Positions 2,324 to 15,387 of a DNA stretch of 64,000 bases are shown here, piece after piece. Positions within the stretch are counted from its first letter, which is position 1. Every line of letters starts with the position of its first letter. Below the pieces are notes generated by a model. The model searched no databases. It was not told the DNA's origin and was given only the letters and a program-made list of their open reading frames with translations. The translations under genes and the position numbers were made by a program. Origin of the DNA: an uncultured delta proteobacterium (lineage in GTDB: Bacteria > Myxococcota > Myxococcia > SLRQ01); contig CAVSGM010000001.1 of NCBI GenBank assembly GCA_963727485.1, positions 274,006-338,005 of the forward strand, written 5' to 3'.

Positions 2324-3791
2324 ATGGCCGTCTTCACCCTCGACGAGATCCTCCGCGCCACCGGGGCGCGGCACCGGCCCGCCGCCACGGCGACGGGCAC
2401 GGCGTGCGCCGGTGTGTCCACCGACACCCGGACCCTCGAGCCCGGGGACCTCTTCGTGGCCCTCGCGGGCGAGCGCTTCGACGGCCACCGCTTCCTGGAG
2501 AAGGTCGCCGAGCGCGGGGCCTACGGGGCGGTGGTGGAGAAGGGTCACCCGGCCGTCGACGCCGCCGCCGGGGAGCTCGCCCTCTTCGAGGTCTTCGACA
2601 CCCTCCGGGCCCTCGGCGATCTCGGCCGCCTTCCACCGCGGGCGCCTCGCCCGGGTCCCGGTGGTCGCCATCACCGGCTCCAACGGGAAGACCACCACCA
2701 AGGAGCTCACCGCCGCCGCCCTCGGCGCCGCCCTCGGTCCCGGGCTCAAGACCCGCGGCAACCTCAACAACCTCATCGGCGTGCCCCTCACCCTCTTCGG
2801 CCTCGAGCCCGACCACCCGTTCGCGGTGGTGGAGATGGGCATGAACGCCCTGGGCGAGATCGCGCGGCTCACCGAGATCGCCGAGCCGAGGGTGGGCGTC
2901 ATCACCGGCGCCGGGCCGGTGCACCTCGAGGGGCTGGGGACGGTGGACCGGGTGGCCCAGGCCAAGAGCGAGCTCTACCGGGGGCTGGCCGACGGGGCCA
3001 CCTGCGTGGTGAACCTCGACGACCCCCGGCTCCCGGCGCTCGCCGACGCCGCCGGGGCGGGCACGCGCCTGGTGCAGGTGACCTTCGGCACCGGGGCCGG
3101 CGCCGACTTCCGCCCGCTGGACGTGGTCCAGGACGCCGAGGCCGGCCTTGGCTTCGAGGTCGAGGTGAGCGCGCGCTTCGGGGGCGGGCGCCTCCCGGTG
3201 CGCCTCCCGCTCCTGGGGATCCACAACGCCCTCAACGCCTGCGCCGCGCTGGCCGCCGCCGCGGCCCTGGGCGCCGACCTCGAGGCCGCCGCCGCGGGCC
3301 TGGCGCAGGTCGAGGGGGTGGGGCGGCGGCTGCGCCGGGCCGAGGGGCCCCGGGGGAGCCTCCTCCTCGACGACTGCTACAACGCCAACCTCGCCTCCAT
3401 GGAGGCGGCGCTGGCCACCGGGCGCGCCGTCGCCGACGCCCGGGGCGGGCGCCTCATCGCCGCCCTCGGGGACATGCTCGAGCTCGGTGGCGCCGAGGCG
3501 AGGATGCACCGCCGCCTCGGCGAGCTCGCCGCCGAGGCCGGGGTCGCCACCCTGGTCGCCTTCGGGCCAAGGGCCCAGGCGGCCCATGACGCCGCCGGCG
3601 ACGCCGTGCCCCGGCGCCTCCACACCGACGATCCCGCCGCCGCCGCCGCCTTCCTCGCCGAGGGCCTCGCCCCCGCCGACGTGGTGCTGATCAAGGGCAG
3701 CCGGGGGATGGCCATGGAGCGCATCGTCGAGCGCCTCGAGGTCGGCGCCGCGGCCACCGCCCCGGCTCCGGGGAAGGGAGGCCGCCGATGA
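2324..3791 (+). CDS. murF: UDP-N-acetylmuramoyl-tripeptide--D-alanyl-D-alanine ligase MurF; reading frame broken by an apparent +1 single-base insertion near 2624
   Basis: The N-terminal ~100 aa (MAVFTLDEIL...TDTRTLEPGDLFVALAGERFDGHRF...ALGDL) are in frame 2. The rest (AAFHRGRLARVPVVAITGSNGKTTTKEL... to the stop at 3791) is in frame 0. Deleting one G from ctcgGccgcc (2621-2630) restores a canonical full-length MurF of about 488 aa. Stop overlaps the mraY ATG (ATGA). Confidence 0.85.
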
Positions 3792-4927
3792 TCTACTGGC
3801 TCCTCTACCCCTTGGCCGGCCGGTTCCCGGTGTTCAACGTCCTGCGCTACCCGAGCTTCCGGATGATCATGGCCGGGCTCACCGCGCTCCTGTTCAGCCT
3901 GCTCCTCGGGCCCTGGTTCATCGAGCGCCTCCGGGTCGCCCAGCACGGCATGGACACCGTGCGCGAGGACACCCCCGAGAACCACCAGAAGAAGCGCGGC
4001 ACCCCGTCCATGGGCGGCCTGCTGATCCTGGCGGCGCTGCTCCTGGGCACCCTGCTCTGGGCCATCCCGACCAGCCCCCTGGTGTGGACGGTGGTCACGG
4101 TGACCGTGGGCTTCGGCGCCGTGGGCTTCGCCGACGACTGGATGAAGTTCCGCAACCGCTCCAAGGGCGTCCCCGGGAAGCTCAAGCTCCTCATCGAGGC
4201 GGCCATCACCGCGGTGGCCATCTACGCCTTCCTCACCGACCACCACCTCATCTTCTCCAGCCACTTCCCCTTCGCCACCGTCGGCTTCCGGCTCGACACC
4301 CACGTGGCCTTCCCCTTCGTGGCCACCCACACCTTCAACCCCAACCTCGGGTGGGCCTACCCCCTCTTCGCCCTCTTCGTGGTCATGGGGACCGGCAACG
4401 CGGTGAACCTCACCGACGGCCTCGACGGGCTCGCCATCGGCCCCACCATCGTCGCCGCCGTGACCTGGCTGGTGCTCGCCTACGCCGCGGGCACGGTCAT
4501 CGCCGGGTTCAACATCGCCGAGTACCTCTACATCCCCCACATCGCCGGGGCCGAGGAGCTCTCCGTCTACGCCGCGGCCATGGCCGGGGCCGGGGTCGGC
4601 TTCCTCTGGTACAACACCTACCCCGCGTCGGTGTTCATGGGCGACGTGGGGTCCCTGGCGCTGGGCGGCGGCCTGGGGATGCTGGCGGTGCTCACCAAGA
4701 ACGAGCTGGTGAGCGCCATCGTCCACGGGGTGTTCCTCCTCGAGGCCCTCTCGGTGATCCTCCAGGTGGCCTCGTTCAAGTCCACCGGGCGCCGGGTGTT
4801 CCGGATGGCGCCGGTGCACCACCACTTCGAGCTCAAGGGGTGGGCCGAGCCGAAGATCATCGTCCGCTTCTGGATCACCTCCATCATCCTCGCCGGGGTG
4901 GCGATCGCGGGGCTCAAGCTGCGATGA
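3788..4927 (+). CDS. mraY: Phospho-N-acetylmuramoyl-pentapeptide transferase MraY
   Basis: 379 aa polytopic membrane protein with classic MraY motifs (NxxNxTDGLDGLA, ...HHHFE...). Position in dcw cluster. Confidence 0.93.
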   Translation: MIYWLLYPLAGRFPVFNVLRYPSFRMIMAGLTALLFSLLLGPWFIERLRVAQHGMDTVREDTPENHQKKRGTPSMGGLLILAALLLGTLLWAIPTSPLVWTVVTVTVGFGAVGFADDWMKFRNRSKGVPGKLKLLIEAAITAVAIYAFLTDHHLIFSSHFPFATVGFRLDTHVAFPFVATHTFNPNLGWAYPLFALFVVMGTGNAVNLTDGLDGLAIGPTIVAAVTWLVLAYAAGTVIAGFNIAEYLYIPHIAGAEELSVYAAAMAGAGVGFLWYNTYPASVFMGDVGSLALGGGLGMLAVLTKNELVSAIVHGVFLLEALSVILQVASFKSTGRRVFRMAPVHHHFELKGWAEPKIIVRFWITSIILAGVAIAGLKLR

Positions 4928-14013: not shown

Positions 14014-14097
14014 GAACCAAGGCAGTGGACTCCACCCCGAGAGGGGCGAAGCGGACGCGAGAGCGGATGACGCGACGGAGAACGTGAGGAGGCAGAC

Positions 14098-15387
14098 ATG
14101 TTGGAGTTCGATAGCAGGAACGACCACGGAGCGAAGCTCAAGGTGATCGGCGTCGGGGGCGGCGGAGGCAACGCCGTCAACACCATGATCGACCAGGGCC
14201 TGGACGGCTGCGACTTCATCGCGGCCAACACCGACCTCCAGGCGCTGCAGAACAACCGGGCGCCGATCAAGATCCAGCTCGGGGGGCAGACGACCAAGGG
14301 CCTCGGCGCCGGGGCCAACCCCGAGGTGGGGCGGCAGAGCGCCCTGGAAGACAAGCGAGCGCCTCGCCGAGGTCCTCGAGGGGGCGGACATGGTCTTCGT
14401 CACCGCGGGCATGGGCGGCGGCACCGGCACCGGGGCGGCGCCGATCATCGCCGACATGGCCAAGAGCCTCGGGGCCCTGACCGTGGGCGTGGTGACCAAG
14501 CCCTTCTTGTTCGAGGGCAAGCGCCGCCGGCGGCAGGCCGAGGAGGGGATCATCGAGCTGCGGGCGGCGGTGGACACCCTGATCACCATCCCCAACCAGC
14601 GCCTGCTGATCGGTGGCCGACACCTCGACCAGTCCTCGACGCCTTCAAGAAGGCCGACGAGGTCCTGGTCCACGCGGTGCAGGGCATCAGCGACCTCATC
14701 ACCATCCACGGCCTGGTCAACGTCGACTTCGCCGACGTGCGCACCATCATGTCCAGCCAGGGCATGGCGCTGATGGGCACCGGCTACGCCGCCGGGGCCA
14801 ACCGGGCGGTGGAGGCGGCGAACCAGGCGGTGAACAGCCCGCTGCTCGAGGACATCTCCATCGAGGGCGCCATGGGCATCCTCATCAACATCACCGGCGG
14901 GCCGGACATGACCCTCCACGAGATCGACGAGGCCGCCTGCCTGATCCAGGAGGCCGCCCACGAGGACGCCAACATCATCTTCGGCTCGGTGATCGACGAG
15001 CGGATCCACGACGAGCTGAAGATCACCGTCATCGCCACCGGGTTCTCCACCGAGGACGAGAAGCGCCTCCAGCGGGTGGCGCCCTCGGTGCCGGCGGTGC
15101 GGCGGGCCCAGGCGCCGGTGGCCGCGCGGCATCCCCACCCGGCGGTGGCGCCGGCGGCGAGGCGGCCCACCCAGGGCCAGCTCCCGGTGGCCCCGCGGCC
15201 GGCCCCGGAGGCCCAGGCGGTGGTCCCGGCGACGGCGGGGCGCGGCCGGGCGGAGGCGGATCGGCCCGCCTACCTGCGCAGCCGGCCCCAGCCCCCGACC
15301 CACACCACCTTCCGGGAGAACCCCTCGCTCCCGGACACCGAGGACGAGTACGACATCCCCACCTTCCTCCGGAAGGGCGGGGAGTAG
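14098..15387 (+). CDS. ftsZ: Cell division GTPase FtsZ; frame broken by an apparent +1 insertion (about 14356) and a -1 deletion (about 14632)
   Basis: N-terminus with GGGGGNAVN tubulin signature in frame 1. The central part ([21 protein letters not shown]...[10 protein letters not shown]7 loop region) is in frame 2. The C-terminal part ([22 protein letters not shown] ... [10 protein letters not shown]) is back in frame 1. Removing c from aagCgagcgcc, and adding one base in gaccag^tcctcgac, gives the exact spacing seen in E. coli FtsZ (LL+8 aa+ILDAF). Confidence 0.9.

Follow-up and report, generated by a model that had tools for sequence, protein, structure and literature searches.

The 64-kb stretch of DNA analysed in this work (referred to below as the window) carries a dcw cluster from a member of the Myxococcota, with a G+C content of ~73%, in which the genes murF, ftsA and ftsZ are all interrupted by frameshifts, and the question raised by this locus is whether these genes are truly broken in the organism or whether the frameshifts are errors in the sequence. 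If an indel lies inside a gene, then its reading frame will be broken at that point, and a preliminary description of the locus implied that such breaks are restricted to the division genes. However, a total of 10 indel events (nine 1-nt insertions and one 2-nt deletion) were identified in 7 of the ~55 genes in the window, and in addition to murF, ftsA (two events) and ftsZ (three events), they break glgB and three exopolysaccharide genes, with the remaining ~45 genes looking intact. The genes that are hit (viz. murF, ftsA, ftsZ, glgB, an epsV-like gene, an epsX-like gene and a sugar transferase gene) are unrelated, and they are affected at a roughly genome-wide rate, as expected for an artefact. 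As four other genes of the window are interrupted by the same kind of indels, the frameshifts in the division genes are a data-quality problem and no new biology is seen there. Judging from the sequence comparisons described below, they are probably consensus indel errors of an incompletely polished long-read assembly, with the genes of the organism being intact (a reading to which we assign a probability of about 0.92). The preliminary description had likewise favoured indel errors, due to uncorrected long-read assembly or to edits, over real inactivation, and the assembly version is borne out by the window-wide spread of the events, the intact sites in a close relative and the gap-free repair of the proteins.

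In the division genes, same-strand frame switches were located by a Viterbi segmentation based on codon usage at 2616/2617, 13044/13045, 13273/13274, 14354/14355 and 14629/14630, and the upstream frame is stop-free at all five of these, except for a newly created TAG at 13275-13277. Low-penalty excursions in the same segmentation, at 26049-26069, 28133-28185 and 18136-18315, resemble low-complexity Pro/Ala-rich sequence. When intact orthologues from L001 and L003, two Myxococcia/Deltaproteobacteria MAG loci, were used as tblastn queries, nine other dcw genes each gave one HSP, and the matches to MurF, FtsA and FtsZ were split. In murF (2324..3791, plus strand), one extra G is present at 2624/2625 (CTC G[G]CC), between the Mur_ligase N domain and the middle domain, and two collinear HSPs are seen, one in frame 2 (2315-2623) and the other in frame 3 (2625-3737). 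This event lies within 2 nt of the +1 shift that had been noted earlier near 2624. The repaired MurF matches the TIGR01143 murF model over its entire length (1-418/418) in one stretch with 384 bits, and its junction (...GDLAAFHR...) is the same as in P0124, a 73%-identical MurF; the public record contains only a 376-aa fragment (P0123) of this protein.

For ftsA (12782..14013, plus strand), the two +1 shifts that had been reported near 13046 and 13275 were recovered within 2 nt of these positions by alignment with the related contig L111, which is described below. They correspond to an extra T at 13047/13048 (GATC -> GATTC) and an extra C at 13273 (TCA[C]GTAG), the latter leading to the in-frame TAG at 13275-13277, and both extra bases are missing from L111. 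The L001/L003 orthologues gave three collinear HSPs here, which lie in frames 2, 3 and 1. The repaired FtsA is 409 aa long and can be aligned gap-free with five 409-aa FtsA proteins (372-397/409 residues identical), and the SHS2_FTSA domain matches it over 1-79/79, spanning the first junction, whereas in the public record it is represented by a C-terminal fragment of 216 aa (P0244). Past both shifts (segment 3), FtsA is 92% identical to that of L001, which comes from a genome with only 67% identity in MurG, and this indicates that no decay has followed the supposed inactivation.

Three events are found in ftsZ (14098..15387, plus strand), viz. an extra C at 14356 (AAG[C]GAG), an extra C at 14611 (GAT[C]GGTG) and the loss of CC between 14632 and 14633. 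Due to the net shift of zero, a 429-aa ORF remains open, in which residues ~86-180, including the GGGTGTG motif, are out of frame and the six codons (VADTST) between 14611 and 14632/14633 are in the third frame. Three HSPs, in frames 1, 2 and 1, were seen with the L001/L003 orthologues. As it stands, the ORF matches Pfam Tubulin only over 2-96/190, whereas the repaired protein matches Tubulin over 2-189/190 and FtsZ_C over 1-94/95, with a complete GTPase domain containing the GGGTGTG motif, and it is identical without gaps at 423/429 positions to the intact P0121 from the 96%-identical contig. A 236-aa C-terminal fragment (P0002) represents this gene in the public record. The preliminary description had explained ftsZ by two events, and of this account the insertion at 14356 and the net shift stand, but the 1-nt deletion near 14632 has to be replaced by the insertion at 14611 followed by the 2-nt deletion. 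A single 1-nt deletion near 14632 was considered and rejected, as the resulting 15-residue stretch has rare codons and no likeness to relatives; the insertion of C at 14611 followed by the loss of CC at 14632/14633 yields LLMVADTSTSLLDAF, which is identical to P0121. The wider statement that each of these genes is broken by a 1-nt indel is similarly correct in that repair gives canonical full-length proteins, but it overlooks the 2-nt deletion.

Beyond the division genes, at least four further +1 frameshifts are present, at 38086 in glgB and at ~57619, ~59433 and 62467 in the exopolysaccharide genes. In glgB (37535..39541, with an approximate start; plus strand), the extra A is located at 38086/38087 (GATC -> GAATC), the frame switch at 38084/38085 has a stop-free upstream frame, and the repaired protein matches NF003811 over 2-618/619 in one stretch (995 bits) that crosses the junction at residue 144; the fragment in the public record (P0257, 473 aa) has its start at 38120. 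The other three genes are on the minus strand. The epsV-like polysaccharide chain-length (PCP/Wzz) gene (56674..58135) carries a +1 event at 57619-57621 (coding strand TC[C]GATC or TCC[G]ATC), with the frame switch at 57617/57618 and a stop-free upstream frame, and its repaired product matches NF041864 EpsV over 20-479/484 in one stretch (E 2e-77) across the junction at residue 172. In the epsX-like export/outer-membrane gene (58719..59982), where the frame switch is at 59431/59432, the +1 event lies at 59433-59437 (coding strand GAT[T]C or GCG[G]AT), and the match of the repaired protein to NF041842 EpsX (150-384/412, E 4e-15) extends across the junction at residue 183; this is the least secure of the ten events. 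The gene for an initiating sugar transferase (Bac_transf; 62123..63491) has its +1 event at 62467/62468 (coding strand GATC -> GAATC) and its frame switch at 62466/62467, and after repair one continuous match to Pfam Bac_transf (1-178/179, 228 bits) runs over the junction at residue 341. For all 10 events, the repaired junction is spanned by one full-length family match. No additional in-frame stops are present in the repaired frames of the disrupted genes, and downstream of the shifts the codon-usage model tracks the repaired frames.

The preliminary description had also proposed a comparison with the loci of close relatives, and when this was carried out L111 was found to be intact at all five ftsA/ftsZ sites. 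L111 (ENA ERZ25039500 contig_38491) is a 354-kb contig with a Flye-style name, a feature of L111 and not of the record of the window, and it is 96.1% identical over positions 4119-16215 of the window. This comparison covers the ftsA and ftsZ sites, and those in murF, glgB and the exopolysaccharide genes were compared with distant orthologues and family models. In the genome and metagenome contigs scanned with MurG, no sequence from the same species was found, the best match being 67% identical. L111 has its own indels (~26 extra bases and 2 missing) at places where the window is in frame, and in its gene calls mraY, murD and murB are split, and FtsW, MurG and MurC are fused into a product of 1085 aa. 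The two independent assemblies are broken at different places in near-identical genes, which marks the damage as technical, and its origin would lie in sequencing or consensus calling. The window would represent a stretch of a public 1.25-Mb contig from an uncultured high-G+C Myxococcota, for which noisy single-molecule (long) reads were probably used with incomplete polishing, so that its consensus would retain small indel errors and reading frames would break where these fall in genes.

The events are not evenly spread, as 5 of the 10 are clustered within 1.6 kb in ftsA-ftsZ (P = 4e-4 under uniformity), and a simple uniform error model leaves this clustering unexplained. In a variant of the artefact reading, the consensus would be a chimera of co-assembled strains (e.g. 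of the L111 type), where cross-mapping of reads onto conserved genes has corrupted the polishing, and such cross-mapping would account for the clustering. With ~1-2% mismatch to L111, ftsA and ftsZ are indeed among the most conserved stretches (murG, murC and murB show 6-8%), and they hold half of the events. However, mraY is as conserved (0.7% mismatch) and yet intact in the window, and we consider this variant possible but rather doubtful.

It is far less probable that the mutations are real, with a lineage or subpopulation carrying broken murF, ftsA and ftsZ and either having second copies elsewhere or a decaying genome, even though the bases are present in the deposited record and their clustering in ftsA-ftsZ is non-random. 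In such a case, three essential single-copy genes and four others would have been hit within 64 kb, with codon usage and conservation remaining perfect downstream, while the 96%-identical L111 has no disruption at the ftsA/ftsZ sites, with similar damage elsewhere in its assembly that is thereby marked as technical. Second copies of the broken genes were not found within the window, and the signs of a pseudogene (a disruption common to relatives and added degeneration) were not seen, the disruptions being absent from L111, L001 and L003. In the shifted segments, the codons differing from L111 comprise 15 synonymous and 11 non-synonymous ones, which are small counts.

The types of the insertions provide further information regarding their origin. 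The commonest long-read error is the extension of a homopolymer, and at least three of the insertions (+C at 13273, 14356 and 14611) are outside homopolymers. All four A/T duplications are located inside GATC (GATC -> GAWTC) and two further events directly adjoin this motif; the insertion at 14611 creates a GATC instead of striking one. The window contains 330 GATC and 18 GAWTC sequences, and 4 of these 18 are frameshift sites, whereas under a null model in which a random base is duplicated the probability is ~0.01 per event and ~1e-4 for at least three of 10. A second common motif, AGCGCC, which follows immediately after the insertions at 13273 and 14356, has 187 copies in the window, and as its significance is weak and post hoc, no claim is made for it. 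The A/T duplications in GATC point to a systematic, possibly methylation-linked, long-read error, and the GATC-linked subset would then be due to a motif-specific, possibly 6mA-related, signal error. This also gives a small hint that the organism may methylate GATC sites and that these may have been mishandled by the basecaller or polisher.

That the indels were introduced after deposition, deliberately or accidentally, by editing or spiking of the window, is even less probable than real mutations. Several of the insertions are non-homopolymer single bases, and the MraY of the window is without an exact match in the contig index. However, by exact protein look-up, a 1,252,212-bp NCBI/ENA contig encodes the intact MraY, HAD protein and response regulator of the window, and it contains MurF, FtsA, FtsZ and GlgB only as post-frameshift fragments of 376, 216, 236 and 473 aa. 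In the contig index, the fragments P0002 and P0123 likewise had no exact match. As the exact post-frameshift fragments are already present in the deposited contig, the errors belong to the record and were not planted, which argues against the deliberate edits that the preliminary description had entertained, and all four A/T duplications falling inside GATC would also be unexpected from random edits. Just as improbable is that the GATC-centred duplications are real, resulting from a hotspot of GATC-directed nicking or methylation or from heterogeneity within the population; if so, essential division genes would be carrying standing frameshift variants that reached the consensus.

If the frameshifts are consensus errors, then their main significance is for annotation. 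The prediction that automated annotation would flag these genes as pseudogenes has already come true, as the public gene calls report fragments, and any automatic annotation of this record would give murF, ftsA, ftsZ, glgB and several exopolysaccharide genes as pseudogenes or fragments. For a poorly sampled Myxococcota lineage, completeness estimates, pangenome work and claims of gene loss would be misled, and with about one in eight genes of the window affected, the assembly as a whole should be polished, or corrected in a frameshift-aware manner, before it is used.

The least probable explanation, programmed recoding, whereby ribosomal +1 frameshifting or transcriptional slippage would restore the proteins in vivo, is compatible with the same sign (+1) of 9 of the 10 events and with the open ftsZ ORF, but the ten contexts are heterogeneous with no common slippery or stimulatory motif, one of the events removes 2 nt, L111 (for ftsA/ftsZ) and all orthologues compared lack the insertions, whereas known programmed frameshift sites are conserved, and the TAG at 13275, as read from the sequence, is outside a prfB-like CUU-UGA context. 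It had been argued earlier that ftsA cannot be rescued in this manner as its two shifts have the same sign, but this logic is unsound, given that recoding could act at both of the +1 events; better grounds for excluding it are that no slippery motif is present and that the close relative is without the insertions.

In comparison with prfB-type +1 frameshifting, the frameshifts described here are alike in that each single-base insertion would need a +1 shift. However, they have neither a conserved slippery codon paired with a stop or rare codon nor a Shine-Dalgarno-like stimulator upstream, relatives do not conserve the sites, several of these can fall in one gene and one is a -2 event; none of the ten sites shows a slippery sequence and stimulatory element of the conserved kind, and the orthologues are without the shift. 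Errors linked to methylation are mostly substitutions. Nanopore assembly errors located within GATC motifs have been described (PMC12392509), and the resemblance to such errors linked to methylation motifs (Dam GATC) lies in the 4 of 10 events that are duplications of A or T inside GATC, the difference being that they are 1-nt insertions, whereas reports of that type specify no single-base insertions (PMC12392509). Spurious pseudogenes are known to arise depending on assembly, platform and coverage (PMC11017572), and frameshift errors are typical of nanopore MAGs, particularly at low coverage (PMC8103633). Although the events in the window differ from such spurious frameshifts in bacterial genomes and MAGs assembled from nanopore or PacBio reads in being insertion-dominated, with several outside homopolymers and a cluster in ftsA-ftsZ, they share with them the small indels scattered across unrelated genes, the splitting or fusion of conserved essential genes, the recovery of canonical proteins upon repair and the different sets of broken genes in near-identical assemblies.

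The G+C content is 70-77% across the window, and its first 15 kb are occupied by a classical dcw cluster, arranged PBP-murE-murF-mraY-murD-ftsW-murG-murC-murB-ddl-ftsQ-ftsA-ftsZ. As long open stretches are present in every frame at such high G+C, lists of ORFs are uninformative, and therefore a codon-usage model trained on the intact dcw genes was used with a 7-state Viterbi segmentation. If a gene ends normally, the distance from stop to switch in this segmentation is 3-41 nt. Same-strand frame switches were seen at 2616/2617, 13044/13045, 13273/13274, 14354/14355 and 14629/14630, and past these the upstream frame stays open for 144-1033 nt, except at 13273, where a TAG is created by the insertion itself. 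In tblastn searches with intact orthologues from two loci (L001 and L003) of Myxococcia/Deltaproteobacteria MAGs, MurF gave two HSPs and FtsA and FtsZ three each, all collinear and changing frame exactly at the switches, and each of the nine remaining dcw genes gave a single HSP. The frameshifts reported for murF, ftsA and ftsZ in the preliminary description are thus indeed present in the sequence, as the five switches lie a few bases from its five sites and the HSPs change frame there.

Among the species representatives, the genomes nearest by MurG (61-67% identity) are uncultured Myxococcia/Deltaproteobacteria MAGs; searched with MurG, neither this collection nor the metagenome collection yielded a same-species sequence. 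The FtsZ ORF as it stands, used as query, gave a fragment match, and its 90% cluster is shared by P0121, an intact 429-aa FtsZ from a 354-kb ENA contig (ERZ25039500 contig_38491). The corresponding locus on that contig (L111) aligns to 4119-16215 with 96.1% identity and 33 gaps. In comparison with L111, ftsA carries an additional T at 13047 (GATC to GATTC) and an additional C at 13273, and ftsZ has an extra C at both 14356 and 14611, with CC missing between 14632 and 14633. A +1 followed by a -1 had been proposed for ftsZ; the indels are indeed present, but this alignment shows that the actual events are +1, +1 and -2. Six ftsZ codons (VADTST, 14613-14630) are consequently in a third frame, and this stretch was also flagged by a low-penalty Viterbi run. 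In murF, an extra G is present at 2624/2625, and the repaired junction, GDLAAFHR, is that of a 73%-identical MurF. After repair (viz. removal of the extra and restoration of the missing bases), FtsZ is identical to P0121 at 423 of 429 positions without gaps, and its tubulin GTPase domain match covers 2-189 of 190 positions instead of only half (2-96); FtsA is 409 aa long, as are five other FtsA proteins to which it aligns without gaps, and MurF shows an end-to-end TIGR01143 match.

Directly past the dcw cluster, synteny and conservation drop sharply, as a 532-aa ORF at 17604-19202 (-) is only 75-80% identical to L111; this ORF has no Pfam match, and the coding signal drops in its central Pro-rich stretch (about 18115-18315). 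Positions 29699-39541 comprise a complete GlgE-pathway alpha-glucan operon (glgE, a 1145-aa treS-maltokinase fusion, malQ and glgB). The start of glgB is approximate; the open frame 5' of it (37351-37535) is extremely Arg/Pro-rich and then Lys/Ala-rich, and is assigned by the codon model to non-coding sequence or the opposite strand. The cluster at 39636-45644 contains a GNAT acetyltransferase, an AsnB-like asparagine synthase, an AMP-binding ligase, an NAD-synthase-like protein and a small acyl/peptidyl carrier protein (42752-43017), and resembles a module for carrier-protein-dependent amidation or acylation. It adjoins a Myxococcus-type exopolysaccharide locus (45663-63491, -), which encodes a WecG/TagA glycosyltransferase, GH44, a polysaccharide deacetylase, GT2s, hexapeptide acetyltransferases, Wzy_C, EpsV-like and EpsX-like proteins, a response regulator, Poly_export/SLBB (Wza-like), a Wzx flippase and an initiating sugar transferase.

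The frameshifts are not specific for the division genes. Segmentation revealed four further stop-less switches, and in each case removal of one base gave a single junction-spanning family match: glgB (+A at about 38085-38086, GATC to GAATC; repaired match 2-618 of 619) and, on the reverse strand, the genes for the EpsV-like PCP chain-length protein (+1 at 57619-57621; 20-479 of 484), the EpsX-like export protein (+1 at 59433-59437; 150-384 of 412) and the initiating sugar transferase (+A on the coding strand at 62467, GATC to GAATC; Bac_transf 1-178 of 179). In Pfam scans of the remaining ORFs, the domains were complete and no other gene was split; ten events were thus counted in all, spread over 7 of the roughly 55 genes. 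Half of these are concentrated in a 1.6-kb part of ftsA-ftsZ (13047-14633; P = 4e-4 under a uniform model). It is possible that this clustering results from cross-mapping of related strains onto the ftsA-ftsZ stretch, which is highly conserved; however, mraY is as conserved and yet intact.

None of the five ftsA/ftsZ sites is damaged in L111. Over its positions 1-12121 (12 kb), about 26 bases are inserted and 2 deleted at places where the window stays in frame; mraY, murD and murB of L111 are split in the gene calls, and FtsW, MurG and MurC are fused into a 1085-aa product. Near-identical genes in two independent assemblies are thus damaged at different, non-overlapping sites. L111 is far noisier than the window; most of its insertions do not extend homopolymers, and they often lie beside substitutions. 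Codon usage past the shifts tracks the repaired frame, and the final FtsA segment still shares 92% identity with its L001 orthologue, though MurG of that genome is only 67% identical; there is no decay downstream of the shifts. Programmed recoding is excluded, since the sites have no slippery motif in common and the insertions were not found in any relative compared. Deliberate editing is refuted by the public record, where one 1,252,212-bp NCBI/ENA contig, which holds the window's MraY (379 aa), HAD protein and response regulator by exact look-ups, has only fragments for MurF (376 aa, P0123), FtsA (216 aa, P0244), FtsZ (236 aa, P0002) and GlgB (473 aa, P0257), each beginning just past the frameshift of its gene. 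The mis-annotation that had been predicted for murF, ftsA and ftsZ has therefore already occurred. The original interpretation in terms of assembly error is essentially correct: the frameshifts are very probably artefacts that stem from the assembly quality of a public long-read contig, and they reveal nothing new biologically about the division genes themselves.

The ten events comprise nine 1-nt insertions and one 2-nt deletion. All four A/T duplications (13047, 38086, 59433 and 62467) lie inside GATC, for which random-base duplication gives a chance of about 1% per event; GATC occurs 330 times in the window and GAATC/GATTC only 18 times, four of which are frameshift sites. Two more insertions (2624 and about 57619) adjoin GATC, and that at 14611 makes one. 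The non-duplicative C insertions at 13273 and 14356 are each followed after 1-2 nt by AGCGCC (A[C]GTAGCGCC and G[C]GAGCGCC), a weakly significant link, as 187 copies of this motif are present. The insertions in GATC suggest a long-read signal error linked to that motif, possibly related to 6mA or Dam-type methylation. Spurious pseudogenes of this kind vary with platform, assembler and coverage (PMC11017572) and are typical of nanopore MAGs (PMC8103633), and nanopore assembly errors that fall in GATC are also reported (PMC12392509).
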